Source: a virus
IMG/VR virus record: IMGVR_UViG_3300009320_000045
Coordinates: 1 to 41,152 of that record
Direction: 5' to 3' (one strand)
Length of the DNA: 41,152 nt
The notes beneath the pieces are model-generated. The model saw only the letters and a program-made list of their open reading frames with translations, made no database searches and was not told where the DNA came from. Position 1 is the stretch's first letter; each line of letters begins with the position of its first letter. The position numbers and the translations under genes are program-made. Below are positions 1,416-41,152 of this stretch, in pieces.

Positions 1416-1694
1416 ATGGCATCTGAACAAAAGATCAACCGGGCATTCCTGTGGACCAAGGATCTTCTTATCCTGATGATAGCGGCGGGTGGAATCTTTG
1501 CGGCGGCTAGCAAGTTCTGGTTGCTGCCTACTGCCAATGCGGAGAAGATCGAGGTCAATGTCGTTCACATCAAAGAAACCAATGCGAAAGTTGATGATCT
1601 TGGTTTGAGTATGGTCAGACAGGAGGCGCACCAAGAGGATGTTATTCGGCGCCTGGATAGGATACAATTGAAGCTAAACGGAGGGAACCCATGA
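1416..1694 (+). CDS. small membrane-anchored coiled-coil protein
   Basis: AAGGAG lies 7 nt upstream of ATG 1416; the ORF-track start at 1296 falls inside the previous gene. One TM segment (LLILMIAAGGIFAAA) is followed by a heptad-like tail. The stop overlaps the next start (ATGA). Confidence 0.6.
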   Translation: MASEQKINRAFLWTKDLLILMIAAGGIFAAASKFWLLPTANAEKIEVNVVHIKETNAKVDDLGLSMVRQEAHQEDVIRRLDRIQLKLNGGNP

Positions 1695-3331
1695 GAAAGC
1701 TGATCGGCTTACTACTTGCCCTTGGCCTGTGCGCCTTCCCTGTAGAGGCAAGAGCGTCCGCCTTCACATGGGATTCGGGATACAAGGGTGATGTGCCGGA
1801 TGCAGAGGACATCGCCACCAGCACCACCAACTTCGGCGGGATCCTCTCCTCCAGCGATACCTACGTCCAAACCGCGCTCGACACCATTGACGACTTCTCC
1901 ACCACGCCCTCTTTCGCCACCAGCGTTACCGTAACCGGCAGCGCTCCACGCTACATCTTCACCCCTGATGCCGGCGATGCCTTCGAGATCGTGGCCACCG
2001 GATCCACCGCTTATCTGGTGGATACCACGGACGGCGTAATCGGGTGGCTCCTGGATGATGCCCTGCACCTGGGAGAGATCGGCTTCGAGCCAACCCACGT
2101 TGAGGTCCATGTGAGCCAGACCGGGGACACCAGTGTGCGGCTCGGGACCAACACCATCGGCATTGATGAGCTTGATGCTATTGATACGCCGGCGGACACG
2201 GAAGTATATACTTATGATGCCACCACTGGCCGAGGCGAATGGTCCTCGGCAGCAGCCGGGGACATCAGCGCAATCGGGGATGTGACCTCCGGCGCCGCAT
2301 TCGATGGCACCCAGGGAACCACACTCACCTTCAACAATGCCGGGGGCGATGCCACGCTTGATTATGACGGCACCGACATCGAATCCAGCACCATCCTAAA
2401 GGCAACCTCGCTCCTGGAAGGCGCCAACGCGGTCCCCAACGCCACAGATCACCTGGGCTTCTTTGCTGCCACAACCTCTGCTCAACTGGCAGGGGTCCTG
2501 AGTGATGAGACAGGCAGCGGGGGTGGGTTTGTCAGGGCAACGCTACCCACCATCGCCGGTATCGCTTGTACCGGGGACATCGACATTGATGCTGCCAATG
2601 CCAACATCACCATTCAGCACACCGGGGGCGATGAATTCCACTTCGGGACAGAGGCCGGCAGCATCGTCTACATCAGCGATGCTACTGATGGCGTCACCTA
2701 TTGGCTGGCCAACATCCTCCATGGCATCGAGTATGGGGATCCGAGCGTTACCTCTCATGTGTTCCGGGCATCGGCCACAGGGGATGCGGTGGTCCAGCTG
2801 CCGGGCAACTCCATTGGTGGCGGAGAAATGGTGGACGCCACAACCGCAGCGGCCGGGGACGTTGAGCTTGCCACCATCCTTGAAACCACTACAGGTACGG
2901 ACACCGCGAGGGCTGTAACACCTGATTCTCTGGCAGGGTCGGATTACGGCATCCAAACGGTGTCCATCCTGGTCTTTGATGATTCGACAGCAGCAGCGGT
3001 AGCGGATGGCGCCGGGGATGTATTCTGGAGGGTGCCTTCCACCCTTAACGGCTACAACCTGGTGACCGTAGCTGCTCATGTTCAGACCGCAGGGCAGAGC
3101 GGAGAAACGAATGTCCAGATCCACAACGTCACCCAATCCGCGGATATGCTCTCAACCATCATCACCATCGAGGGCAACGAGAAGGATTCGGCCACCGCCG
3201 GCACCCCCGCGGTGATCGATACCGCCAATGACGATGTGGCCACGGCTGATGAGATCCGGATCGATGTGGATGCGGTCAACACCACTGCCCCCCAAGGGCT
3301 TCTAGTGGAGCTTCAATTCCAGGCACCATGA
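1691..3331 (+). CDS. tail-fibre-like protein with Sec-type signal peptide (paralogue of the 38733 fibre)
   Basis: 546 aa. It starts MRKLIGLLLALGLCAFPVEARA|SAFTWDSGYKGDVP..QTALDTIDDF, which parallels the 38733 ORF. It also shares the block TGDIDIDAANANITIQHTGGDEF..TEAGSI. Composition is T/G/A/D-rich. Confidence 0.75.
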   Translation: MRKLIGLLLALGLCAFPVEARASAFTWDSGYKGDVPDAEDIATSTTNFGGILSSSDTYVQTALDTIDDFSTTPSFATSVTVTGSAPRYIFTPDAGDAFEIVATGSTAYLVDTTDGVIGWLLDDALHLGEIGFEPTHVEVHVSQTGDTSVRLGTNTIGIDELDAIDTPADTEVYTYDATTGRGEWSSAAAGDISAIGDVTSGAAFDGTQGTTLTFNNAGGDATLDYDGTDIESSTILKATSLLEGANAVPNATDHLGFFAATTSAQLAGVLSDETGSGGGFVRATLPTIAGIACTGDIDIDAANANITIQHTGGDEFHFGTEAGSIVYISDATDGVTYWLANILHGIEYGDPSVTSHVFRASATGDAVVQLPGNSIGGGEMVDATTAAAGDVELATILETTTGTDTARAVTPDSLAGSDYGIQTVSILVFDDSTAAAVADGAGDVFWRVPSTLNGYNLVTVAAHVQTAGQSGETNVQIHNVTQSADMLSTIITIEGNEKDSATAGTPAVIDTANDDVATADEIRIDVDAVNTTAPQGLLVELQFQAP

Positions 3332-4110
3332 GGAAGCTGATCGCTCTATTCATAGGGCTTGGTCTAGTTGTCCCGGCATGGGCTGGCAACATCATCTTTG
3401 TTCGCAGCGCAGCCAGGGTTACAGTCAGCGGTCATGCCACCCTGCCTACCTCTCTCGAATCCTATTGGGATCTTGAGGAAACATCCGGCACCAGGGTTGA
3501 CAACCCCGGAACGAATGACCTGACCGACAACAACACCGTTACTTATGTGACGGGCAAGCAGGGCAACGCCGCCCACTTTGAGGTAGACACCACTGAGTAC
3601 CTATCCATCACTGATAATGCTTCCATCTCCACAGGTGACATCGACTGGTCATTTGCTTGCTGGCTCAATGTGGAATCCTATGACAGCGGGAACAAATGCA
3701 TTGCTTCTCATGACGTCGCGGTGCGCAGCTATCAGTTTGAGCTTCAGGATCAAGGCAGTGGCAACTTCAGGGCTGACTTCCTTGTCTTAACTTTCGATGG
3801 GGGAAGCTCCGCCCGGGTGGGCGCCGACACCTTCGGCAACCTCTCAACCGGAGTCTGGTATTTCATCTATTGCTACCACGACGCATCGGGCAATGAGATC
3901 GGGATCTCGGTCAATGATGGCACGGTTGACACCACCGCCACCGGCGGGATTGCACCAGGTGACGCCGATGGCGCATTCCAAATGGGTGCGCGTGATGGAA
4001 GTAGGTGCATTGACGCCAGCATTGACGAGTTCGGGTTCTGGAAAAAGGTGCTGTCCTCAGCGGAGGTAACGGATCTCTACAACTCAGGGGATGGGATACC
4101 CTATGATTAG
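3328..4110 (+). CDS. LamG / concanavalin-A-like lectin domain protein with signal peptide
   Basis: ATGA coupling to the previous gene. Signal peptide MRKLIALFIGLGLVVPAWA|G. LESYWDLEETSGTRVDN, WSFACWLN, GVWYFIYCYHD and IDEFGFWKKVLSSAEVTDLYNSG form a Laminin_G_3-type signature. Confidence 0.75.
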   Translation: MRKLIALFIGLGLVVPAWAGNIIFVRSAARVTVSGHATLPTSLESYWDLEETSGTRVDNPGTNDLTDNNTVTYVTGKQGNAAHFEVDTTEYLSITDNASISTGDIDWSFACWLNVESYDSGNKCIASHDVAVRSYQFELQDQGSGNFRADFLVLTFDGGSSARVGADTFGNLSTGVWYFIYCYHDASGNEIGISVNDGTVDTTATGGIAPGDADGAFQMGARDGSRCIDASIDEFGFWKKVLSSAEVTDLYNSGDGIPYD

Positions 4111-11056: not shown

Positions 11057-11443
11057 ATGGCGCAAGGAAAGCGAACATACATCGTCGGCCTCAGAACCGG
11101 CATTTTGGATCCGAAGCACGTCAATGGGATCGGTCCTGCGATATGGGAGTTCATGTGGTGCGTGGACCGGACCACGAAAGAGGAAAACCATGATGGGGCG
11201 TTGTGGGGCAAGGTCCTGGGTGGCAAGGTGGTGACTTGCGAGAAGATCCGCGCGGACCTGGGGACCAGCGAAAGAACGGTGCGCCGGCACATGGATCGGC
11301 TGGAAAAGAAGCGGTACATCCGGACCAAAAGGACCCTCCATGGCATCACCATTGAGGTCCGAAACTCTCAGCGGAACTTCGATGCCCACAGCGCAAAGAG
11401 AACTCTGAGGCGCATGGCAAGCCGAATTGGGAGCAAGCGTTAA
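11057..11443 (+). CDS. winged-helix DNA-binding protein, candidate replication initiator / iteron binder
   Basis: IRADLGTSERTVRRHMDRLEKKRYIRTKRT..GITIEV is a wHTH signature. The gene ends 17 nt before the DnaA-box/iteron cluster. Confidence 0.55.
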   Translation: MAQGKRTYIVGLRTGILDPKHVNGIGPAIWEFMWCVDRTTKEENHDGALWGKVLGGKVVTCEKIRADLGTSERTVRRHMDRLEKKRYIRTKRTLHGITIEVRNSQRNFDAHSAKRTLRRMASRIGSKR

Positions 11444-11529: not shown

Positions 11530-11540
11530 TGCTTCATTCC

Positions 11541-11606
11541 GGACAAAAGTGGCCGGAATGACGGACAAAAGTGGCCGGAATGACGGACAAAAGTGGCCGG
11601 AATGAC
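11541..11606. repeat. three perfect tandem 22-bp iterons
   Basis: GGACAAAAGTGGCCGGAATGAC occurs three times at 11541..11562, 11563..11584 and 11585..11606. The first copy sits within the inverted repeat CATTCCGG-N10-CCGGAATG. Confidence 0.85.
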
Positions 11607-11755: not shown

Positions 11756-12286
11756 ATGGCAGACCTGACTAGAGTATATCTTCATGTTGAATGCGAAATA
11801 TGTGGAGAAATCTATGCACAGCAGGAGAGGGTACACCAAAAAGCGAAATGGAAAAATCGGTGCAGGTCACACCGGAGAGCGGTCAATTTATGCCGCGGAT
11901 GCGGAAAAGAGATTTATAGGACATCAAAGAAATGTAAAAGCTGCGCCCAAATAATAAGAAAGCCCAAGGTATGCCTTTGTTGTGGAACGCCAATATCCTA
12001 TAAAGCAAAAATTTGTCTCCGCTGCCACAACAGATTTCAAGATCGCGGGAAGTCAAGGGAGCGCACAAAATTCCAAAACTCAAGACCCTGGATGGAGGTA
12101 CGAGAACGATGCTTCGAGAGAGACAGATACCAATGTCAGCGGTGTGGCAGGAGCCGAGGCGGAGTAGTGCTAAACGCACACCACATCAAACCGTGGAAAT
12201 CGCACAAAGACGGCAGGTTAAAGCTCGAGAACCTCATCACTTTATGCAAGCCGTGTCACTACTCTGTGCATTGGGGTTGCTTATAA
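11756..12286 (+). CDS. HNH endonuclease with N-terminal multi-CxxC zinc ribbons
   Basis: CQRCG..LNAHHIKPW..NLITLCKPCHYSVH is an HNH motif. Five additional CxxC pairs lie upstream. The 5' half is visibly AT-richer than its neighbours. Confidence 0.8.
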   Translation: MADLTRVYLHVECEICGEIYAQQERVHQKAKWKNRCRSHRRAVNLCRGCGKEIYRTSKKCKSCAQIIRKPKVCLCCGTPISYKAKICLRCHNRFQDRGKSRERTKFQNSRPWMEVRERCFERDRYQCQRCGRSRGGVVLNAHHIKPWKSHKDGRLKLENLITLCKPCHYSVHWGCL

Positions 12287-12606
12287 GCGCGCCGGCTCAT
12301 GCAGCGACTGCCTCCTGGTTCAGCCGCGAAAGTTGCCTCCGGGAGGGGACATCCGGGATTATGGCAAACGGCATGAAGCTAGAAGATGATTACCTGATCT
12401 GCGCCTCATGGGATTACCCGCTCGGGACATGGCTGCGAGTCCGGGCGAACGGCAAAGAAGTGATCGTGATTGTCGCAGACCGGGGACCGAACCGAGCGCT
12501 CTACCGGCAAGGCAGGGTGTTGGATCTGAGCGCGAGAGCGTTTAAGCGATTATCTCCCCTGTCTGCTGGCTTGGTGGAACTTGATAGCGTGGAGGTATTA
12601 TCGTGA
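12244..12606 (+). CDS. secreted RlpA-like double-psi beta-barrel protein (candidate lytic transglycosylase / endolysin)
   Basis: Internal ATG 12244 of ORF-track 12013..12606. Signal peptide MQAVSLLCALGLLISAPAHA|AT. ASWFS..TSGIMANGMKL..ICASWDYPLGTWLRVRANGKEVIVIVADRGP matches the RlpA/DPBB core. Confidence 0.6.
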   Translation: MQAVSLLCALGLLISAPAHAATASWFSRESCLREGTSGIMANGMKLEDDYLICASWDYPLGTWLRVRANGKEVIVIVADRGPNRALYRQGRVLDLSARAFKRLSPLSAGLVELDSVEVLS

Positions 12607-12730
12607 CAAGCTGCCCGGGTCCGGGCTTAGCTGTGGAGCATCTGTAGTGACAGCTTTCATCTATCCAAAAGCTGCGATTGAAGCTATGGCAGATCCTCGT
12701 GTTCGGGAGTTGTTGAGAAAGGAACGGTCT

Positions 12731-12976
12731 ATGAACAGGCAGATTAAGTTTAGGGCGTGGGATGGGGAAAAACTTTACTATTCAGATCAAGCAGGTTTAG
12801 AGGAATTTTTCTCTAATGGGTTCGATAATGTCATGCAATTCACCGGACTCAAGGACAAGAATGGGGCTGGTCCTGTGTTTTCTCTTTCTTGTCTTGCTCG
12901 TCAAGGTCGAACTTTATGTTTTTGGTTGGCTCAGGGACGTGAATCGGGTAAGACGCACTGCCCTTACGATGGATAA
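12731..12976 (+). CDS. YopX-like N-terminal domain protein, apparently truncated
   Basis: AAAGGA RBS 7 nt upstream of ATG 12731. MNRQIKFRAWDGEKLYY..MQFTGLKDKNG matches the YopX N-terminus, but the expected continuation is absent in every frame. Confidence 0.45.
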   Translation: MNRQIKFRAWDGEKLYYSDQAGLEEFFSNGFDNVMQFTGLKDKNGAGPVFSLSCLARQGRTLCFWLAQGRESGKTHCPYDG

Positions 12977-13088
12977 CACTCTCGAGCTTTATCAATTCAA
13001 TTTAGTCAATGGCAGCAAACTCTTTACCGAGGATGGCCGGGAGCTTTCGTTTATTGCTTTCGTAAAGAAGGAGCAAGCAGATGAGTGA
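12969..13088 (+). CDS. micro-ORF, 39 aa
   Basis: ATG 12969 overlaps the previous stop by 8 nt, and its own stop overlaps ATG 13081 by 8 nt, so it bridges an otherwise 104-nt gap. Confidence 0.3.
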   Translation: MDNTLELYQFNLVNGSKLFTEDGRELSFIAFVKKEQADE

Positions 13089-13497
13089 GCAACCAGAAGC
13101 ACAGCAGAGGGCGAGGGAGGAGGCGGAGAAGTTCCACGACACTTACGAACGACTTGCCCCATCCTTCGGATACGAAACCAGGAAAGACACCAAGCGCTTT
13201 GATCCAGAAAGCTCCAATGGGAAACTGATGGTTGCTGTCTGCCAAGAAATCCTCCAACCGTTGTATGAGGAGGTTGGGCGGTTGAGAAAGCTACACTCTC
13301 ATGCCCTCAAAGCTATGAGGCTTGGGAATGAAGCAGCGGTTGATTACGAACAAGCCATCAGCATCTTGGTGGGGGCGTTGGAACTTATCAGAAATTACCC
13401 ACACATTAAAGAAAAAATCGGATCAGAACTAACAGATTTAACTGACCAAGCCCTCCAGAATCCCACCGTGCAGAGTGTGAGGGGGAAGGGGGAATGA
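13081..13497 (+). CDS. hypothetical protein
   Basis: GGAG RBS. 138 aa. Contains AEKFHDTYERLAPSFGYETRKDT. No family recognised. Confidence 0.65.
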   Translation: MSEQPEAQQRAREEAEKFHDTYERLAPSFGYETRKDTKRFDPESSNGKLMVAVCQEILQPLYEEVGRLRKLHSHALKAMRLGNEAAVDYEQAISILVGALELIRNYPHIKEKIGSELTDLTDQALQNPTVQSVRGKGE

Positions 13498-14018
13498 GAT
13501 TCATAAAAATTGACGAGCAGATCCAGCGCGAAGCCGAAGAAGCTGCCGGCAAGATTCTGTCCAGGAGAAAGATCAAGCGCAAGCCCAACTACACCGGCCT
13601 GTCCCACCCGGACCGCTTCCTGACCGGATACCTCGGGGAGTTTTGCTTCAAGAAGATTTTGGAGCAGGAGAAGATCCGGCACCTGTACCGGATCTGTACC
13701 AGCGGCAAAAGCCAGCGCAGCGAGTTCATTCTTTTTTCGCAAGGATGCTCAGTCACCACGGATGTCAAGACAGCATCCAAGCCGCACCATACCAACCTGA
13801 TGATGCCGGTGACGCAATTCGCTGCACACGACACCACCGGCATTTTTGTGGCGGCTAGGATCGTCAACGGATTCTGTGAGTTTCATGGATTCGCGGACCG
13901 CATCATGATGATGCAGGTGCGGGAGAAAAGTTTTGGCTATGTTCCAACCCTGGCGGTTCCGTTTTACCGGCTCAGAACAATGGACGACCTTTTCCGGTTT
14001 GCAGACCATGAACCGTAG
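13494..14018 (+). CDS. hypothetical protein, possible PD-(D/E)XK-like nuclease
   Basis: ATGA coupling. GYLGEFCFKKIL followed by SEFILF..TTDVKT resembles an E..DxK nuclease core. Tentative. Confidence 0.6.
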   Translation: MRFIKIDEQIQREAEEAAGKILSRRKIKRKPNYTGLSHPDRFLTGYLGEFCFKKILEQEKIRHLYRICTSGKSQRSEFILFSQGCSVTTDVKTASKPHHTNLMMPVTQFAAHDTTGIFVAARIVNGFCEFHGFADRIMMMQVREKSFGYVPTLAVPFYRLRTMDDLFRFADHEP

Positions 14019-14136
14019 AAAAACTTGCTGGACTTATCCGGCGCTCCTATTGATCCTGCTGTTCGGCGCGGGGTTCACTTTGCGCCCCCAACAGTGGGGT
14101 GAGGTTAAATTAAACAAAGGAGGAAACGATGAGTGA
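14008..14136 (+). CDS. small membrane protein, 42 aa
   Basis: Internal ATG of ORF-track 13933..14136. Basic N-terminus plus a TM segment (YPALLLILLFGAGFTL). It bridges two genes with short overlaps. Confidence 0.35.
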   Translation: MNRRKTCWTYPALLLILLFGAGFTLRPQQWGEVKLNKGGNDE

Positions 14137-14410
14137 TTCAATTGGTAAACCAGTGTTGGTTACTACCGAGTTTCGAGGTGTGTTCTTTGGGTATCTTAAG
14201 GAGCAGGATGGGAGAGAATCTTTAACTCTTACCAAAGCAAGGAACTGTATCTACTGGTCGTCTGACGTGGGTGGGTTCTTAGGATTGGCGTCTAAGGGGC
14301 CATCTGATAGTTGTAAAATTGGGACGTTGGTGGATGAACTAACAATCTACAAGATTACCAGTATTACCCCTGTCTCTAAAGAGGCGGCAGCAAAATGGCT
14401 CAACGCATAG
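14129..14410 (+). CDS. conserved-looking hypothetical protein
   Basis: AAAGGAGGA RBS. 93 aa. Contains VLVTTEFRGVFFGYL..ARNCIYWSSDVGGFLGLASKGP. Confidence 0.7.
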   Translation: MSDSIGKPVLVTTEFRGVFFGYLKEQDGRESLTLTKARNCIYWSSDVGGFLGLASKGPSDSCKIGTLVDELTIYKITSITPVSKEAAAKWLNA

Positions 14411-14415
14411 AGGTT

Positions 14416-14880
14416 ATGACGAAAGAGCTGGTGCTTCGTACCGTCCTGTTCGGTGCCTGTCGAGATCGAATCCCTGATGTTGGAACACCCATAAGTAGGC
14501 TTTCCCAAAGTGATCTAATTTGGGGGGAACGGATCTTGACCAAGAAAGAGAGAGCATCACTTGTAATTCCGGTTTGGTGCTCCGGCGACGGCTACGGCTA
14601 CGGCTCCGGCTCCGGCTACGGCTCCGGCTACGGCTCCGGCTCCGGCTACGGCGACGGCTCCGGCGACGGCTCCGGCTACGGCTACGGCTCCGGCGACGGC
14701 TACGGCGACGGCTACGGCGACGGCTACGGCTCCGGCTACGGCTACGGCTCCGGCTACGGCGACGGCTACGGCTCCGGCTACGGCTACGGCTACGGCTACG
14801 GCTACGGCTACGGCTACGGCTCCGGCAATAGCGCTATAGAAAAAACATTAGGTAAACTCTTTGGTAAGAAGAAACCTTGA
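14416..14880 (+). CDS. Gly-Tyr-Ser-Asp low-complexity repeat protein
   Basis: ATG 14416 lies just after the previous stop, with AGAGG upstream; an alternative start is 14395. A 55-aa N-terminal domain is followed by 41 X-Gly dipeptides and then a basic tail, NSAIEKTLGKLFGKKKP. Confidence 0.7.
   Translation: MTKELVLRTVLFGACRDRIPDVGTPISRLSQSDLIWGERILTKKERASLVIPVWCSGDGYGYGSGSGYGSGYGSGSGYGDGSGDGSGYGYGSGDGYGDGYGDGYGSGYGYGSGYGDGYGSGYGYGYGYGYGYGYGSGNSAIEKTLGKLFGKKKP
14581..14826 (+). repeat. 41 tandem hexanucleotide units NNC-GGC (TAC, TCC or GAC followed by GGC)
   Basis: Read directly: 21 TACGGC, 13 TCCGGC and 7 GACGGC units, uninterrupted, with no synonymous codon variation. Confidence 0.95.
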
Positions 14881-15343
14881 GATTTTTACTGCCGCAGTTT
14901 TTCTCTGCATGGCAGTAAATGCTTTCGCTTTACGCCCTCTTAATTGGGCAGAGGTCGGTCTGGAGGAAACCCAGGCGGAGACAGCAGCTCAGTTCACAGA
15001 GTGGTTGAGCAGAGAGCATAACGTGCAGTGGATCAGCATTAGCTTGGACGACAGAAAGCGTAACATCCACCTGCACGTTGGGATCTCTGAACCGTTTGGA
15101 GGTCTGAAAATAAGTGAGATATTCTATGAGTTGTTCAAGCGCTGGCATGTCCATGAGGCATTCAGGCATCTTTGGCTTCACCCAAGAGCTTCTACTGTTG
15201 AGCCGACAGGCCAGCTTCTCTATGATCGTAAGGCAGGGCAGAGACCGGAGTGGGATTCTTACTTGAAGTGGCTGGAGCCGTTGCTGGGGATGGGTGCGGA
15301 GGCGGGGTTGGAGGAACCGAGCTATAGTTTGAGGGATTTTTGA
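14861..15343 (+). CDS. hypothetical protein, probably exported
   Basis: The TTG start at 14861 gives MVRRNLEIFTAAVFLCMAVNAFA|LRP, a signal-peptide-like N-terminus. An alternative start is ATG 14909. Confidence 0.5.
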   Translation: MVRRNLEIFTAAVFLCMAVNAFALRPLNWAEVGLEETQAETAAQFTEWLSREHNVQWISISLDDRKRNIHLHVGISEPFGGLKISEIFYELFKRWHVHEAFRHLWLHPRASTVEPTGQLLYDRKAGQRPEWDSYLKWLEPLLGMGAEAGLEEPSYSLRDF

Positions 15344-15570
15344 TGAAGTTCTCAATCGAGTGCGAGATGAAGGATCGGTGGGTACCACACTTCCTAGCCA
15401 TGCTGAAGTATATGCAGGTACTAGGCAATTTTGGTGGCAGCAGAATGATAAGTTTCTACTCAGATGGAGATGGTGATTTCAACCCGAAGTTTTCTTGGGA
15501 TGAGTGGCTACCATCTGATGCAGAACCTATCTCTGATAGGGACGGGGACAGAACATACGATGCAGGATGA
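15343..15570 (+). CDS. hypothetical protein
   Basis: ATG 15343 overlaps the previous stop (TGATG). 75 aa. Contains KFSIECEMKDRWVPHFLAMLKYMQVLGNFG. Confidence 0.65.
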   Translation: MKFSIECEMKDRWVPHFLAMLKYMQVLGNFGGSRMISFYSDGDGDFNPKFSWDEWLPSDAEPISDRDGDRTYDAG

Positions 15571-15596
15571 GGGATTTCTAACAAAGGAGAAGAAAA

Positions 15597-15722
15597 ATGA
15601 ACAGATTTCTTTGGTACAGAATATTTCGGCAACGCTTCTATTGTGGGAATAATCTACATAACACACTACCTCGATGGATTAGCAACTTAGTGGGCTGCGA
15701 TTGTCCAGGGCTGTATTCATGA
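15597..15722 (+). CDS. micro-ORF, 41 aa, Cys/aromatic-rich (below the ORF-track cut-off)
   Basis: AAAGGAGAAG RBS 4 nt upstream of ATG 15597. The stop overlaps the next ATG (ATGA at 15719). Confidence 0.45.
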   Translation: MNRFLWYRIFRQRFYCGNNLHNTLPRWISNLVGCDCPGLYS

Positions 15723-15967
15723 CCCCAACTAAAGAAGCGGTGGAGAAGGCGAGGGAGATCGTTACACAATACCCACCAGTAGGGCAGCATGAGTTTGTCA
15801 GAGAAGGTTGTTATGTCCGGGTAACACAAGAGGGCATTACCAAAGCCGTCGCCCTCGCCCTCACCGAATCCCACGAAGCTGGACGGAGGGATGAACAGGA
15901 GAAGTGGCAGTACACCCTTGCCTACTTGACAGATGAGGACATGGCTACACCAGAAGGGTGGATGTGA
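15719..15967 (+). CDS. hypothetical protein
   Basis: ATG 15719 is an internal start of ORF-track 15701..15967, coupled to the upstream micro-ORF. 82 aa. Confidence 0.55.
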   Translation: MTPTKEAVEKAREIVTQYPPVGQHEFVREGCYVRVTQEGITKAVALALTESHEAGRRDEQEKWQYTLAYLTDEDMATPEGWM

Positions 15968-16006
15968 TCGTAAGAGACAGGGTGCCGAATTTTAGTTGGG
16001 GCAAAA

Positions 16007-16189
16007 ATGAATAGACCACGATGCGATACCCAAGAGAGCAAGCGCATTGCCAAGACCATCCTATTCGCAGCAATAGTATTTTTGCTTGGGTTTTATTTGG
16101 CGAATAGCATCATCACCGTTAAGTGGATCGGGCAGGGGCGCTGCCCGGAATGTGGCAGACCATATCAATCACAGGAGCAAACAAAATGA
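16007..16189 (+). CDS. small membrane protein with a C-terminal CxxC
   Basis: 60 aa. TM segment ILFAAIVFLLGFYLANSII, then CPECG. Confidence 0.5.
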   Translation: MNRPRCDTQESKRIAKTILFAAIVFLLGFYLANSIITVKWIGQGRCPECGRPYQSQEQTK

Positions 16190-16434
16190 CAGAGAAGCAG
16201 CAGACGATGAAGGGAATCGACACCCCAATTGCCAAAGCGTGCGACGCTTATCTGGATCTCACCGGGCAGGTTGAGGGCTTGAAGAATCAACAGCTAGAGA
16301 TCCAGCAGAGAATCATCGAACACTTAAAAGCTGGCGGGAGGAGGTCAGTAATCCACCAGGGGTACAGATTCTGCGTCAAGGATATTGAGGCCAAGACGTT
16401 GCTCTCGGTCAAGGAGGCGCCGGCCGCTGAATGA
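16186..16434 (+). CDS. hypothetical protein
   Basis: ATG 16186 overlaps the previous stop (ATGA). 82 aa. Confidence 0.6.
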   Translation: MTEKQQTMKGIDTPIAKACDAYLDLTGQVEGLKNQQLEIQQRIIEHLKAGGRRSVIHQGYRFCVKDIEAKTLLSVKEAPAAE

Positions 16435-16775
16435 GCGAAACCGATCTAGTCAACGCTTGTCTTTTCCTGCTGCGGACCCTGGATATTGAAGCGTGGCGGC
16501 AGCAAGCAGGAGGTATACTTGTTAAGGGGAGCCAGGGAAGGCATTGGGTCCGGCTCGGTCCGGCCGGGGTGTCCGACATCACCGGCATCCTTCCCGATGG
16601 GCGCCGGCTGGAAGTTGAGTGCAAGCGGCCGGGCAATCGTCTGACTAAAGATCAGATGGAGTTTCAGCAGATGATCCAACGCAACAACGGAGTGGCCATT
16701 ACTGTCTATAATGCAAAACAGCTTGGGGTACTTCTTACTCAACTATCTGGAGGGGAAAAATGCGAATCAGCATAA
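16431..16775 (+). CDS. VRR-NUC domain nuclease
   Basis: GVSDITGILPDGRRLEVECKRPGNRLTKDQMEFQQMIQRNNGVAITV gives the D..ExK..Q layout of VRR-NUC. ATGA coupling. Confidence 0.7.
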   Translation: MSETDLVNACLFLLRTLDIEAWRQQAGGILVKGSQGRHWVRLGPAGVSDITGILPDGRRLEVECKRPGNRLTKDQMEFQQMIQRNNGVAITVYNAKQLGVLLTQLSGGEKCESA

Positions 16776-17017
16776 TTGCAATTGCCTTGGCGCTTCTCAT
16801 GTGCGCGCCGGCATATGCGCAACCAAAGACCGAAGGCGAAATACTTAAAAACCTTCGCGAGTCAAAGAGCCGGATTGAACAGGTACTTGCAGAACTCAAC
16901 CAACAGCGTATAAAATATCAGAGGGATTATCTCAAGGTGCTTGGCGCAATCGAGGTCCTTGAATCGCTGCGCCGGCAGGAGATTGAGAAAGCCATTGAGG
17001 AAAAAAGTGGCGAATAG
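16760..17017 (+). CDS. small secreted coiled-coil protein
   Basis: GGAGGGG RBS. Signal peptide MRISIIAIALALLMCAPAYA|QP. The remainder is heptad-like. Confidence 0.65.
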   Translation: MRISIIAIALALLMCAPAYAQPKTEGEILKNLRESKSRIEQVLAELNQQRIKYQRDYLKVLGAIEVLESLRRQEIEKAIEEKSGE

Positions 17018-18345: not shown

Positions 18346-19542
18346 GTGGCTCCCCGACGGCACCGAGGGATGGCAACTTTCCTCGGTGCCGTTCTCCTTT
18401 TAGGAGTCATTGGTTTTGTTCCAGAAGCTCAGATCCCCATCCGTTCCGGCAAGCAAGCCCTTGTCGATCTTGGCCTAGTGTTTGGTCTTGGATTCCTACT
18501 CCCTTCTCGCTGGCTCAAACTTTTTTATTGGTGGTCATTGCTGGTGCTTTGCAAAAGGTTCACCCCGCATTCCCTCCTGGTTTTCTATACCCTCTCCATT
18601 TACCTTTTCGTTTTCTCCTTCGCGGTCCGCAAGGTTACGGAGGACCACTTAAATCTCATTGCTCGATGGATCCGCGGAATCACCATCTTCCAGTTGCTTT
18701 GGATGGGTCTGCAATTTTTCAACATGGATCCCATTTTTGTTGATGTCATGCCACCGGGAATGGACCCGCAGTATTGGGATCCAACCCGCCCCACCATCAC
18801 AGGTTTCTTGGATAACAGCATGTTGGCCGGATCCTACCTAGCGGTTGTCTCTCCCTTCTTTTTGCAGGGGCGGTGGAAATGGTTTTTGCCGGTTGTCTTG
18901 GGTGGGATTCTGATGGCCGGCTCAGAGGGGGCATTCCTCACAGCTATATTGATCCTTGCCTGGACCTGCTGGAGAATGTTCCGGCTGTCCGAAAAGCTAA
19001 AGACCTTGATGATGTACGGCACAATCTTCATCTGCACAGGGGTCCTCTACTACGAATGGGCGCACTGGCTTGTCGTTCAGGAGAACTCCAGGTTTTTCAT
19101 TTGGGAGAAAACAAAGGACCTCATCATGCTGGACAAGTTCATGCTGTGGACAGGATGGGGGTGGGGGCAATTCAGCGTTGCCTTCCCGGGGCTAGTCAGG
19201 CATTGGGAGATCGCGCCCTCGCACCTAAGCTGGACCCATACCCACAACGATTTCTTGCAGCTGTGGTTTGAGGCCGGCCTGATCGGGCTTGTCCTTGCCT
19301 GTGGCTTCATCGTTCAGACACTCCGGCCGGCGCTGAGGCGCATGGATCCCATCTGCACCGCTTGGACCGGATCCCTCCTGGGCTGGCTGCTGATAGCCGT
19401 CTGGTCATTTCCGGCGCAGACCGCCGGGCTGAATGTGGTAGGATTGATATTGTGGATCGGGGTTTTTGTTTTGGGGAAAGGAGAATGCCATGCCTGTAAC
19501 AGTTCGCAAGGGCAGCGGGGAGCGCCCCTGGAAGATAGTTGA
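18346..19542 (+). CDS. Wzy_C-domain membrane protein (O-antigen ligase / polymerase / O-oligosaccharyltransferase family)
   Basis: About 10 hydrophobic segments. WTHTHNDFLQLWFEAGLIGLVL matches the Wzy_C signature (HxHN-x-[FY]Lq..e.G..G). The start is uncertain: GTG 18346 or ATG 18370. Confidence 0.7.
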   Translation: MAPRRHRGMATFLGAVLLLGVIGFVPEAQIPIRSGKQALVDLGLVFGLGFLLPSRWLKLFYWWSLLVLCKRFTPHSLLVFYTLSIYLFVFSFAVRKVTEDHLNLIARWIRGITIFQLLWMGLQFFNMDPIFVDVMPPGMDPQYWDPTRPTITGFLDNSMLAGSYLAVVSPFFLQGRWKWFLPVVLGGILMAGSEGAFLTAILILAWTCWRMFRLSEKLKTLMMYGTIFICTGVLYYEWAHWLVVQENSRFFIWEKTKDLIMLDKFMLWTGWGWGQFSVAFPGLVRHWEIAPSHLSWTHTHNDFLQLWFEAGLIGLVLACGFIVQTLRPALRRMDPICTAWTGSLLGWLLIAVWSFPAQTAGLNVVGLILWIGVFVLGKGECHACNSSQGQRGAPLEDS

Positions 19543-19648
19543 GGTAGCGTCAGGCAAGGTAGTTGGATCTTCAACGAGTAAAGCAGATGCCGAAGCAAGT
19601 GCTAGAGCGAGGAACGCCGCCCACAGGGAAAAGACGTTGCTATCTTGA
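19490..19648 (+). CDS. small basic protein, 52 aa
   Basis: AAAGGAG RBS precedes ATG 19490. MPVTVRKGSGERPWKIVEVASGKVVGSSTSKADAEASARARNAAH. It overlaps the 3' end of the Wzy_C gene. Confidence 0.55.
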   Translation: MPVTVRKGSGERPWKIVEVASGKVVGSSTSKADAEASARARNAAHREKTLLS

Positions 19649-38736: not shown

Positions 38737-41152
38737 AGCGCCTAGCAATTGCCATAGGGCTGATTCTGGCACTGGCCGGCTATGCTCATGCGGACGGCTA
38801 CACATGGGATTCCGGTTATAAAGGAGATGTCCCCCCCGCTTCTGCAATCGAAGTAGACACCACCCTTTTCGACAACAACCTCTCGGTTACTGATGAGGAT
38901 GTTCAAACTGCCCTCGAAACCATCGATGATCTCACCCTTCATGATGCCGTCACCGTCACCGACACCACCACCATAGACCTCACCCTCACTGGTCAGGACA
39001 TCAAAGCAGACGGCCTCTACACCGCAGGGGATGCCCTTACCCTCACCGGAGCAGACTTCGACTTTGATGGTGGTGCTACCCCAGGAGGTGACTTAAGCAA
39101 TACTTGGGCTGATCCACAGGTAGACGATGATTCTCATAACCATACCTCCACTACCATTTCTGGTCTAGACATCTCAGACGACACCAACCTTGCCGTAACC
39201 TCTCCTGTTGTCCTGACAGATGATACCCTCTCGCTCAACCAAGACGCTGGTACGGATGTTACCGCTGACCTAGAGGAAGAAACCCACGCTTCCGAACACG
39301 CTGTGGGTGGAGCTGATACTGTATTCCCCGCTGACCCCAACGCAGACAAGTTCCTGAAATGGAATGACACGGGTGGTGCGATTGAGTGGGCGGATGACAA
39401 CAATACTCAGCTTACGGAGGAGCAGGTTGAGGACTTCGTGGGTGGTATGCTTGGCGGTACAGAAACGCTTATCTCAGTGGATTACCAGGATGCAACCAAC
39501 GACATAGACTTCGTGGTGAACGATGATCTCTCCCTGTATGACAACGCAACCTCTGGTTTTATTACAACTACCCTAACTCAAGAGGAAGTAGAGGACTACG
39601 CTGGTGCTTTGATGGCCAATGCCACAGGTACCCACACAGGCATATCCGTCACCTACCAAGATGCCACAGGTGACATGGATCTTGTGGTGGATCATGATGC
39701 TGCCTCTAACTTTGTTGCCGCTGAACATGTGGATTGGGCCGCTGCTTCTGCTGGAACAATCCATACCGACAACTATATAGAAAATGCCACGCATACCGGA
39801 GAGGTAACTGGTTCTGGTGCGTTGACTATTGCCGATAGCGTAACGGTAACAGGTTGGGTCATGGGTGCTTCCACCGCTACTACTCCTGCTGCCGATGACA
39901 ACGATACCTCCTTAGCTACCACCGCCTGGTGCGAAACTACCCAGGATTACCTCAAGACCTCCGAGCTTTCGGGAGCGGAGACCGACCCTATCTACTCTGC
40001 CAATTCCTACGCCGTAGGCATGGATCAGGATGTAGATACCACTGCTACTCCTACCTTTGCTGGTCTTGCTTCTACGGGGGATATAGACGTAGATGCTGCC
40101 AATGGGAACATTACTCTACAGCATCCAGGTGGAGATGAGTTTGGTTGGCATACAGAAGCTGGCTCCATTATGTATTTGAAGAACAACACCGACCGCAAGG
40201 GCTATCTCCTAGCCGATGCTGACCACCGTCTCTACCTGGGTACTCAGGACGGCGTAACAGGTGACATCCTCTCCCTAATCGTCCGTACAGATGGTACAGG
40301 GGATACTGAGGTACAGCTTCCCAGCGACTCCATCGGCAATACGGAGTTAGATGAGAGCCAATCCTATTCTATGGCTGGCTTAACCATGTCAGGTAATATC
40401 GCGATGGCAGATGACACCTGGATAGGGATTGGTTCTCCCAACAATGCCAGACTAGAGTTTGATGCTACGCCATCTCCCGATACCATAGATGTCTGCGATG
40501 CAGAGCTGAGGATTAGCGGTAACACATCCTTTTACATTGGTGGCGCTGATGGGACTGCTGAGATTGGCAGATTATACAACAGCGCGGGTGACTTAACCTT
40601 CGAAGGAGATGGGAACCGAGATGTGGCCTTCGGTTCGGAGAACCATCCTAAGGTGCTTTTTGTAAATGGGCTTTATGAGATGGTTGGTATAAATGACACT
40701 TCTCCCGACAAAGCGTTAGAGGTTATAGACGACTCTGGTACGCAGTTAAGGTTAACACATACGGATACCGTTGATCACTGTGATTTCGGAGTAGATGGCG
40801 ACGGTTATCTTGGCATAATGCCTTCGGGTGGTAGGGTAGGTATTGGAACAACGAGTCCAGGTGGCAAACTCCACCTCGCCTCAAGCAATGCTGATTTGGA
40901 AGCTATATTTGATACCTATGATAACGGAGTAAAAGAAGGCACTTTTAGAATAAGGAAGTCCGACACCGACACTATCGGCACAGCGGCTTCAACTGACGAC
41001 ACCGATGGTTTAGGGCAGGTTGTTTGGCAGGGTGTAGATGCTGCCACGAACTTTGACTATGGGGCAAGGATTCGAGCTGTCCAGAACGGAGCTGCTTCAA
41101 CTTATGTTCCTACTGACTTATTTCTCTACACCTACAGCGATGCTTCGATAAA
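38733..41152 (+). CDS. tail fibre protein with Sec-type signal peptide (5' part; continues at 1..369 across the circular junction)
   Basis: TTG 38733 is the first start codon after the in-frame TAA at 38667, and it overlaps the upstream TGA. The ORF is open to the window end, so it is absent from the ORF track. N-terminus KRLAIAIGLILALAGYAHA|DGYTWDSGYKGDVP. Tandem EEQVEDFVGG..DYQDATNDIDFVV / QEEVEDYAGA..TYQDATGDMDLVV units. GRVGIGTTSPGGKLHL motif. Confidence 0.8.
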   Translation, partial: MKRLAIAIGLILALAGYAHADGYTWDSGYKGDVPPASAIEVDTTLFDNNLSVTDEDVQTALETIDDLTLHDAVTVTDTTTIDLTLTGQDIKADGLYTAGDALTLTGADFDFDGGATPGGDLSNTWADPQVDDDSHNHTSTTISGLDISDDTNLAVTSPVVLTDDTLSLNQDAGTDVTADLEEETHASEHAVGGADTVFPADPNADKFLKWNDTGGAIEWADDNNTQLTEEQVEDFVGGMLGGTETLISVDYQDATNDIDFVVNDDLSLYDNATSGFITTTLTQEEVEDYAGALMANATGTHTGISVTYQDATGDMDLVVDHDAASNFVAAEHVDWAAASAGTIHTDNYIENATHTGEVTGSGALTIADSVTVTGWVMGASTATTPAADDNDTSLATTAWCETTQDYLKTSELSGAETDPIYSANSYAVGMDQDVDTTATPTFAGLASTGDIDVDAANGNITLQHPGGDEFGWHTEAGSIMYLKNNTDRKGYLLADADHRLYLGTQDGVTGDILSLIVRTDGTGDTEVQLPSDSIGNTELDESQSYSMAGLTMSGNIAMADDTWIGIGSPNNARLEFDATPSPDTIDVCDAELRISGNTSFYIGGADGTAEIGRLYNSAGDLTFEGDGNRDVAFGSENHPKVLFVNGLYEMVGINDTSPDKALEVIDDSGTQLRLTHTDTVDHCDFGVDGDGYLGIMPSGGRVGIGTTSPGGKLHLASSNADLEAIFDTYDNGVKEGTFRIRKSDTDTIGTAASTDDTDGLGQVVWQGVDAATNFDYGARIRAVQNGAASTYVPTDLFLYTYSDASI
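41034..41152. repeat. terminal direct repeat, copy 2 (identical to 1..119)
   Basis: Exact 119-nt identity with the window start. Confidence 0.9.

Follow-up and report, generated by a model that had tools for sequence, protein, structure and literature searches.

The IMG/VR virus record IMGVR_UViG_3300009320_000045, analysed here over its full length of 41,152 nucleotides (nt; hereafter the window, to which coordinates refer unless a locus is named), carries at 14395-14880 an open reading frame (ORF) whose product contains 41 consecutive dipeptides in which Gly alternates with Tyr, Ser or Asp. Comparisons across viral sequences indicate that this array gene is the second gene of a two-gene module spanning hundreds of phage contigs, the first gene of which encodes a small protein of the DUF6948 family with a predicted Sm/LSm-like fold. 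The original prediction missed the most informative feature, the adjoining and overlapping gene for the Sm-like DUF6948 protein, which makes the window locus one member of a widespread cassette. Taken as a whole, the explanation that the ORF is a genuine translated gene of a cassette joining an Sm-like protein to a disordered multivalent array seems to us, on balance, the probable one. We hold its structural and evolutionary part to be very likely; the specific functional reading that we infer, in which array and Sm-like partner act together as a multivalent system, is tentative and may well prove wrong. The features of the cassette are as follows.

14129..14410, + strand: gene for a DUF6948 protein of 93 amino acids (aa), predicted to be a small Sm/LSm-like beta-barrel (Pfam PF22253, AlphaFold2, Foldseek).
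14380..14384, + strand: Shine-Dalgarno-like AGAGG inside the end of the DUF6948 gene, 10 nt 5' of the ATG at 14395.
14395..14880, + strand: array-protein ORF, comprising N-terminal domain, (X-Gly)41, basic amphipathic tail and stop codon (ORF list; homologues with the same three-part layout).
14395..14580, + strand: N-terminal helical domain, 62 aa (HMMER family, profile search, alignments, AlphaFold2).
14581..14826, + strand: (X-Gly)41 with 21 Tyr-Gly, 13 Ser-Gly and 7 Asp-Gly (read from the sequence; predicted disordered by AlphaFold2).
14827..14880, + strand: C-terminal tail NSAIEKTLGKLFGKKKP and stop codon, a predicted short amphipathic helix followed by a basic end of net charge +4 (AlphaFold2).

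Between 14581 and 14826, 41 hexamers (21 TACGGC, 13 TCCGGC and 7 GACGGC) stand back to back on the + strand in the gap-free order SDYYSSYSYSSYDSDSYYSDYDYDYSYYSYDYSYYYYYYYS, exactly the uninterrupted array that had been described, and Tandem Repeats Finder reports 41.3 copies of period 6. Each of its residues is encoded in one way only (GGC for Gly, TAC for Tyr, TCC for Ser, GAC for Asp); in the other long ORFs of the window these codons make up 34% of Gly, 56% of Tyr, 28% of Ser and 43% of Asp codons. From this usage the chance of such uniformity is ~6e-35, assuming codons to be independent, and the one-codon-per-residue pattern claimed for the array therefore far exceeds ordinary codon bias. 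The only frames open across the array are frames 1 (X-Gly) and 3 (Arg-Leu) of the + strand, the Arg-Leu frame being a by-product of the repeat. The array lies in frame with the unique N-terminal domain and with the tail, whose basic character had been correctly recognized, giving a product of 161 aa (62 aa N-terminal part, 82 aa array, 17 aa tail). The array residues carry a net charge of -7 with zero basic residues and form 21 GYG motifs; X is Tyr, Ser or Asp, with no Ala, Gln or Asn. The array also scores 18 bits with the Pfam family TrAA12 (cut-off 30.9), a match that we set aside as an effect of composition. Exact-sequence look-ups of the 161-aa product, the 154-aa product and the phrog_10928 protein returned no record, a promoter and terminator scan of 13000-15600 gave nothing informative near the cassette, and Rfam and tRNA scans of the window had no matches.

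The ATG at 14395 is the more likely start codon than that at 14416, because of the spacing of AGAGG, because the resulting 16-nt overlap with the upstream gene is as in sister contigs, and because homologues have 4-8 residues before the conserved [IV]TKE. At the alternative start GAGG stands only 2 nt upstream. Gene callers made the same choice in loci L122 and L125 of our collection, and the sister-contig gene calls begin at the equivalent overlapping ATG. The N-terminal domain, rightly taken to be unique, is thus 62 aa long with the start at 14395, and not the 55 aa counted from 14416.

A HMMER search with this domain against 1.84e9 representative sequences recovered 32 proteins at E<=1e-3 (best non-self 9.5e-13), and a profile search recovered 46 clusters. 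They share the motif [IV]TKE..A.RA.LFGAC..P.VG......SQSDLIWAE......PLW, with T9, C22, L41 and W43 invariant; similarity to the window protein extends across the whole ~60-aa domain, after which nearly all members run on into an X-Gly array of varying length and composition. Complete members often end with a short amphipathic tail comparable to that of the window protein (KKILELVA, GIISEMIEKLL, KAINKLVIE, DDIGKKILAIV, GKKDLGKIVLAIFTSK). The search for this domain in other phages that had been proposed as a check thus finds it in contigs of uncultured phages, no two of them alike in repeat number. The N-terminal 66 aa, used as query in a word-index search, matched nothing beyond a truncated version of this protein from a contig that stops within the array. 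The domain has no match in Pfam, among PDB sequences or among PDB and BFVD folds, and the family members are unnamed; the whole 161-aa protein has none in NCBIfam or PADLOC, and tblastn against GenBank phages found no match to the domain. AlphaFold2, run on the family alignment, predicts a three-helix N-domain with a predicted local distance difference test score (pLDDT) of 80-89, an array without structure (pLDDT <50 at residues 68-143) and a tail helix at residues 146-156 (pLDDT 60-72). Homology to the 'V..VL.AGAC.DGV' N-domain of other array proteins was considered and is not established (hhalign 9.7%, with only 'VT...GAC' aligned). The idea that LFGAC is a lipobox was dropped, as there is an Arg in the would-be hydrophobic core, the domain is confidently helical, and the Cys is invariant and internal.

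The product of the upstream gene is a clear member of DUF6948 (E 1.4e-22), a family with at least 841 homologous clusters for which Pfam gives no function; the Sm-like fold and the link to X-Gly arrays come from the present analysis. Its AlphaFold2 model has a mean pLDDT of 93.1, and when Foldseek compares it with the PDB, each of the 50 best matches is an Sm/LSm protein of archaea or eukaryotes (probability 1.0, E ~6e-4; template modelling score 0.55 by query and 0.75 by target). On the strength of this model we assign DUF6948 an Sm/LSm-like fold, the strongly bent five-stranded barrel of that superfamily. A search of PDB sequences with the DUF6948 profile returned none even at E<=10. Two Cys are invariant in DUF6948 proper and not conserved in a more distant partner subfamily considered below. 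Other small Sm-like-barrel proteins of phages or bacteria act in RNA metabolism or transcription termination, namely the T4 GoF family (PMC12152347) and the Rho inhibitor Rof/YaeO (PMC11018626); we found no sequence relationship of DUF6948 to either, and neither is reported with a neighbouring X-Gly repeat gene.

The association between the two genes was assessed from both sides, in a forward set of loci fetched from IMG/VR by the DNA pattern (TAYGGN)6 only (at least 120 stretches) and in a reverse set of 80 viral loci fetched by DUF6948 homology only. In the forward set, tblastn detected DUF6948 as the gene immediately preceding the array gene in 20 loci or more, and a first-pass profile found it upstream of 45 of the 78 arrays of at least 15 units among the matches listed. 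An iterative hidden Markov model search (Z = 1e5), which converged in three rounds, recovered 72 of 1,797 neighbouring ORFs in 71 loci, one per locus in 70 and two in L073, and each of these adjoins the array gene. With this wider superfamily, nearly every long array of the forward set has such a neighbour. Conversely, at least 6 X-Gly units follow within 1 kb downstream on the same strand in 71 of the 80 reverse loci, and at least 10 in 68; most of the failures are contigs that end <200 nt past DUF6948. The window shares with these loci a DUF6948-superfamily gene beside the array gene on the same strand, usually upstream and overlapping, and an array of 10 or more X-Gly units in which Tyr, Ser, Asp or Asn predominate at X and each residue keeps to a single codon. 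Measured from the DUF6948 stop, the usual start of the array gene is at -4, -13 or -17 nt; in the window the two genes overlap by 16 nt, and DUF6948 is likewise adjacent and overlapping in L122-L124 and in sister contigs. Fusions occur as well: in L083 a single ORF joins the array, a Zn-ribbon-like Cys-rich segment and DUF6948, and in the database protein P0025 a DUF6948 N-terminus is joined to an N-domain of the window type. Tiny array proteins are preceded by a different-looking protein of ~100 aa (RAVVVVDRGWIFAGDV...).

Among the pattern-fetched loci, Ser-rich arrays pair with DUF6948 proper (Ser exceeds Asn in 26 loci, the reverse in 8), and Asn-rich arrays with the distant RAVVVVDRGWIFAGD-type partner (Ser exceeds Asn in 3, the reverse in 10); this tracking of composition with partner subfamily could be co-evolution or plain shared ancestry. 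Two loci depart from the usual layout, L049 with a DUF6948-like gene downstream of the array gene and L107 with a DUF6948-matching ORF that overlaps the array region. In both, the array is fused to a DUF7666 domain (PF24703, E 2.5e-30).

Across phages the arrays are constant in kind and diverse in setting. Most (TAYGGN)6 stretches among the matches listed sit in long (X-Gly)n arrays in which X is Tyr, Ser, Asp or Asn and rarely His, Phe, Cys, Ala or Thr; in the DUF6948-fetched set, the composition of X is Tyr ~42%, Ser 29% and Asp 22%. The parts flanking the array are of at least five types, to which the window N-domain adds a further one: next to nothing (tiny proteins with a basic end), a ~150-aa C-domain, a ~117-aa C-domain, a DUF7666 N-domain and an 'AGAC' N-domain. 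Many arrays have a leader of just 5-20 aa. The ~150-aa C-domain (L011, L018, L026, L031, L039, L079, L081, L085, L133) has the pattern IKS.NG..IY.VD.VPTII...CYIAK...HG.TL.EA...LTGSC..GR..F, and the ~117-aa C-domain (L012, L071, L104, L155, L197 and others) the motif KEYWLA...FWRS...PSNGGG....; one example of each, scanned against Pfam, had no match, and both look like undescribed phage domain families. Tandem array genes, or a second array seen as an Arg-Leu/Arg-Gln run in another frame, occur in L028 (9-591), L073 (5106-5872), L014, L108 and L112. Cultured phages also carry the cassette. It was verified in Pectobacterium phage Ymer, where CDS0033 and CDS0032 form the pair, and is found in Ralstonia phage NK-7, where XCO36016 is paired with the array protein XCO36015.1, labelled 'fibroin heavy chain-like protein' in GenBank. 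A DUF6948-like gene marks six more Pectobacterium phages (including Taid and Abuela), Dickeya phage Setonix and Vibrio phage IKEMa6-1 as candidate carriers. An array ORF (MSRLVNNKNGDGSGYGDGYG...) lies without annotation downstream of gp84 in Iodobacter phage PhiPLPE (L230, ~1190-1460), and gene25 of Chlorobiaceae phage CV-1-33 (L232, 1786-2031) is an array called in the wrong frame, as MAMAMALAMA.... X-Gly arrays break short-read assemblies, and gene callers miss them or pick the wrong frame.

We weighed five alternatives to this reading of the cassette, which are, in descending order of probability, an anti-defence decoy, a nucleic-acid element, a substrate or precursor that is modified, a fibre of the silk type and an artefact of assembly. 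The diversity just described bears on the fourth, a structural protein whose (Gly-X)n would form a beta-sheet or polyglycine-II fibre as a virion or adhesion component. The array shares with the silk fibroin heavy chain, and with the period of its crystalline repeats, the alternation of Gly with an X that includes Ser and Tyr, and the label of the NK-7 homologue points the same way. That label reflects compositional similarity only: the Ala-dominated GAGAGS/GAGAGY blocks of silk are absent from the window array, its X is never Ala, the protein has just 161 aa, AlphaFold2 gives the array no structure, and the gene lies outside the structural module, in the non-structural part of the genome ~5 kb upstream of the terminase, whose start at 19645 opens that module. 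Short (Gly-Tyr)n patches are also found in unrelated large tail-fibre-like proteins of other viral contigs. These form a separate family of 350-990 aa with a conserved ...ARYFFN.GG...GKGF.DL... motif and (Gly-Tyr)6-12 patches in mixed codons (L009, L019, L027, L029, L035, L036, L048, L051, L052, L063, L065, L066, L070, L076, L091, L097, L110, L117); they have no DUF6948 neighbour and represent a different, unrelated use of Gly-Tyr runs. With a period of two residues, or 6 nt, the array also lacks the Gly at every third residue of collagen-like proteins. A fibre-forming role thus appears very improbable.

Within-array codon uniformity is the rule across ~200 arrays, most of the long ones included: a single codon per residue is used in 73 of 128 arrays of the pattern set, short patches included, and in 53 of 71 of the DUF6948 set. 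The codons themselves differ from array to array. Gly is GGC in most and GGG in many, GGT throughout L141 (43 of 43) and GGA elsewhere; TAC and TAT both serve for Tyr, and TCC, TCT and AGC for Ser; and the same Tyr/Ser/Asp(Asn)-Gly peptide arises from units such as TATGGC, TACGGG, TACGGT and TATGGA. Because the codon set differs between arrays and the peptide composition stays the same, selection acting on peptide composition, and not on the DNA sequence, is the best reading. In keeping with it, Leu, Pro and Arg are avoided as X although they are equally reachable as NNC codons, and every array is read in the frame set by a start codon and shared by conserved protein domains on its N- or C-terminal side.

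These data also bear on the suggestion that the repeat RNA or DNA is itself the functional entity, either as a reiterated site for the Sm-like protein in a cis-acting autoregulation or as a G-quadruplex tract, with translation incidental. Hfq, after all, binds (ARN)n, and the partner has the fold of an RNA-binding family. The perfect codon uniformity within arrays, where only the first two bases of the hexamer vary, and the retention of GGC even in phages of 37-40% GC would suit such a role. So would the GGG-type arrays (L155, L147, L135, L160 and others), in which (TACGGG/TCCGGG/GACGGG)n gives coding strand and mRNA alike a canonical (G3N3)n G-quadruplex motif; the GGC array of the window could form two-tetrad quadruplexes at most. 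Against these stand the variation of the unit itself (NNCGGC, NNTGGC, NNCGGG, NNCGGT, NNTGGA) at constant peptide composition, the invariable reading frame and the restricted choice of X. RNA secondary structure in the array can be rejected, since the array RNA folds more weakly than all 200 dinucleotide shuffles (z = +4.0). A nucleic-acid element is accordingly improbable, and the constraint on the DNA itself that was raised at the outset is unlikely. A diversity-generating retroelement was also considered, as variation confined to the first two bases of the hexamer recalls AAC-to-NNC changes; it is excluded because the window has no second copy of the array that could serve as a template repeat and no reverse transcriptase among its annotated ORFs.

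The uniformity of the DNA most likely stems from in-frame slippage or recombination, as originally proposed, an origin that fits both the codon uniformity across arrays and the unit differences between assemblies of the same phage. An identical DUF6948 protein occurs on 18 contigs from several samples. This phage is carried by the JGI samples 3300009314, 3300009431, 3300013118, 3300013119, 3300009373 and 3300007510, by the ENA SUTE22-1 assemblies ERZ23498639, ERZ23498983 and ERZ23498660, and by SRR8062346. Two independent assemblies repeat the unit order of the window to their contig ends, for 18 units (L129) and 31 units (L126), and independent assemblies reproduce both unique junctions of the array. 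A contig of 40,996 bp has 15 units as against 41, the 156-nt shortfall being its whole size difference from the window; at the 3' end of the array, five assemblies read S(Y)9S as against S(Y)7S in the window, a 12-nt difference that lies within read length; and one further assembly contains a Phe-Gly unit. Judging from these assemblies, unit number and type appear to differ between populations of this phage. In 32 arrays, unit identity shows a deficit at lag 1 and a mild excess at lags 2-3, a pattern that fits 12- to 18-nt steps, selection against homopolymeric runs, or both. Higher-order blocks were not found in the window array, whose unit order does not stand out from permuted orders (p = 0.68 for the longest repeated string and p = 0.11 for the Tyr run).

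The suggestion of a length-variable contingency locus therefore holds in part. Polymorphism in unit number is seen at the level of assemblies ((Tyr-Gly)9 versus 7, the 15-unit allele, the Phe-Gly unit), and the locus is no classical on/off switch, because gains or losses of a 6-nt unit inside the ORF stay in frame. A viral parallel for such length variation is the Gly-Ala repeat of EBNA1 in Epstein-Barr virus, also a Gly-X dipeptide with biased, repetitive, G-rich coding whose length varies between isolates. Its X is Ala and its virus eukaryotic, however, and nothing shown for the phage array corresponds to its known restraint of its own translation and of proteasomal processing.

That the array or its length results from short-read mis-assembly is the least probable of the alternatives. 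Breaks within the array are indeed frequent in contigs of this phage and its relatives: five short contigs are cut off there, several of ~41 kb have an end in it, and 28 of the 80 DUF6948 loci end <700 nt downstream; one assembly, moreover, has 15 units rather than 41. Nonetheless, the reproduction of the unit order and of both junctions in other samples, together with arrays of the same kind, always in frame, in cultured and finished phage genomes, argues for a real repeat. Separately, in L001 (1890-1915) an ENA contig leaves the array after 6 units into the unrelated GGATAAGGCTACTGATCAAGAGACT, probably a chimeric or low-quality end.

How the cassette may work can be outlined as follows. Gene 1 supplies a protein predicted to be a small Sm/LSm-like barrel and the overlapping gene 2 an acidic (Tyr/Ser/Asp-Gly) array predicted to be disordered; the array and its Sm-like partner are the constant elements across phages, and the globular domain on the array protein, interchangeable or absent, would act as an adaptor. 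Selection favours a peptide with Gly at every second position, Tyr and then Ser/Asp/Asn at the others, no basic and almost no aliphatic residues. Units of 6, 12 or 18 nt are most likely gained, lost and shuffled in frame by slippage or unequal recombination, yielding both the uniform codons and alleles that differ in unit number and type between populations. The array would then offer the Sm-like protein a flexible, multivalent partner with many weak, repeated contacts (21 GYG). Together the two may build a higher-order assembly in early or mid infection, perhaps one that includes RNA, whether a scaffold resembling a ribonucleoprotein (RNP) or a condensate, or a tethered display of GYG/GSG/GDG.

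Precedents exist for both halves of this proposal. Sm-family proteins form rings and often work with low-complexity tails, such as the prion-like/RGG tail of Lsm4 in P-bodies, the tails of Arg-Gly dipeptides on SmD1 and SmD3 and the C-terminus of Hfq, which is disordered. As in those proteins, an Sm barrel is coupled here to a low-complexity dipeptide segment, fused to it in L083; unlike theirs, the phage repeat is usually a separate, translationally coupled protein of Tyr/Ser/Asp-Gly and not Arg-Gly, and DUF6948 has no detectable sequence similarity to the LSM/Hfq families. In turn, assembly of the FUS type is driven by [G/S]Y[G/S] motifs. The array resembles FUS and other prion-like domains in having many such motifs (21 GYG) in a Gly/Ser/Tyr-rich, multivalent aromatic 'sticker-spacer' segment predicted to be disordered (pLDDT <50), and phase separation is compatible with these properties. 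It differs from them in its strict two-residue period, in Asp in place of Gln/Asn, in its net charge, in its phage origin, in being encoded by a perfect hexanucleotide microsatellite and in always being paired with a separate Sm-like protein; it is neither Gln/Asn-rich nor near-uncharged, and Asn-rich arrays occur in other loci. A specific form of the proposal, in which an oligomeric Sm-like protein and the coupled (Gly-Tyr/Ser/Asp)n form a condensate or RNP-like compartment in the infected bacterium, is speculative and rather unlikely; such a compartment would be a viral, bacterial-world counterpart of LSm/P-body-type assemblies, its valency tuned by microsatellite slippage.

Several points weigh against this reading. 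The evidence for the partner interaction consists of synteny, gene overlap and rare fusions. Searches of DUF6948 against the Pfam LSM/Hfq profiles gave no match, only DUF6948 itself being reported, and the Sm1/Sm2 motifs are absent by this measure; ring formation and RNA binding by the protein are putative. With 7 Asp and no Gln/Asn, the array is more acidic than classical prion-like domains and may not self-associate. The count of 41 draws on independent contigs for its first 31 units and on the window contig for its full length. Finally, DUF6948 proper and the partner of the tiny arrays are likely one superfamily, on the evidence of the iterative search; this link is likely rather than proven, because a single profile-profile comparison of the two gives a probability of 24%.

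The acidity of the array also enters the alternative that comes next in probability, though it too is unlikely: an anti-defence or host-takeover decoy, in which a flexible array would imitate nucleic acid or soak up, and so titrate, a defence or housekeeping protein of the host that binds DNA or RNA, with the Sm-like protein as chaperone or co-factor. An extended acidic, aromatic chain of net charge -7 without basic residues would place its X side chains on one face ~7 A apart. The cassette lies in the early/accessory region amid recombination and nuclease genes, neighbours in relatives include a DNA methylase (L123) and a gene of the Tad6 anti-Thoeris family (L122), and quick turnover of length and composition fits an arms race. 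Yet neither PADLOC, a library of defence systems and not of anti-defence proteins, nor NCBIfam yields a match, the anti-defence neighbours are not conserved across loci, and the known DNA mimics Ocr and ArdA are folded proteins.

A further alternative sees the array as a repetitive core that is processed, be it by Tyr-Gly chemistry like that of ribosomally synthesized and post-translationally modified peptides (RiPPs), by Tyr cross-linking, or by phosphorylation or nucleotidylation of Tyr/Ser, with the N-domain as leader or recognition element. The layout does recall a leader with a repeated core behind it, one Cys is invariant in the N-domain and two in DUF6948 proper, and XYG is the motif used by spliceotide radical-SAM (S-adenosylmethionine) enzymes. 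It is nevertheless highly improbable. A dedicated maturase gene, as expected in a RiPP precursor cluster, is missing from the window annotations, where no maturase-like enzyme (radical SAM, YcaO, kinase, peptidase) is found, nor is any conserved beside the cassette elsewhere; the leader of many arrays is as short as 5-20 aa; and the sole conserved neighbour is a 90-aa beta-barrel whose Cys are not conserved in the distant partner subfamily.

The genomic setting confirms the phage origin assumed from the start, the window encoding large terminase, portal, major head and tail proteins, a protease-like protein, a RecT-like annealing protein and nucleases of the PD-(D/E)XK, HNH and VRR-NUC types. 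Its two ends (1-119 and 41034-41152) are perfect direct repeats of 119 bp, and the window is probably a complete phage genome of ~41.0 kb (about 41,033 bp), with either a circular assembly overlap or terminal repeats. Among GenBank phages, 12000-17000 has no close DNA relative, and matches to metagenome-assembled genomes, consulted for host assignment, comprise only 7 contigs from mixed taxa that are probably phage sequence binned in error. A 22-bp sequence (CGGACAAAAGTGGCCGGAATGA) stands in three perfect tandem copies at 11540-11606, in the intergenic gap between the ORF 11057-11443 and the HNH gene 11756-12286, and these copies have the look of iterons or operator sites. The gene at 18346-19542, which immediately precedes that of the large terminase, encodes a 398-aa protein with a Wzy_C/O-antigen ligase domain (PF04932, E 3.4e-9), a membrane enzyme unusual in a small phage, where it may alter the surface of the host. 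The 546-aa gene at 1691-3331 contains two segments with counterparts of 74-77% identity near the other end of the genome (1754-1797 with 38790-38833 and 2546-2637 with 40050-40141), which may be paralogous receptor-binding or tail-fibre modules; the gene that follows, 3328-4110, carries a Laminin_G_3 lectin domain. In L122, 631-1017, directly after the array gene of a close homologue, matches Pfam Tad6 (PF25188, the Thoeris anti-defence family), and downstream in L123 lie Band_7, DNA methylase and radical SAM genes; the window genes downstream of the array have no Tad6-like match.

The literature that we searched holds no description of DUF6948, of phage Gly-Tyr arrays or of the two-gene module, and the annotation libraries likewise hold none; a low-complexity aromatic repeat protein with an Sm-fold partner is thus apparently undescribed in phages. 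A survey of prokaryotic and phage low-complexity regions found aromatic residues strongly under-represented (PMC6821194), and one would for this reason not expect hundreds of phage contigs to share a dipeptide array of 80-160 residues that is rich in Tyr. What sets the module apart is its obligatory and highly conserved Sm-fold partner, a peptide composition that is kept while codons differ, and a unit number that differs between populations. The cassette can be tested by experiment, since cultured carriers exist among Pectobacterium, Ralstonia and Iodobacter phages. It would offer a natural example of protein valency tuned by a microsatellite, and may represent a route to phage-driven intracellular organisation or host takeover.

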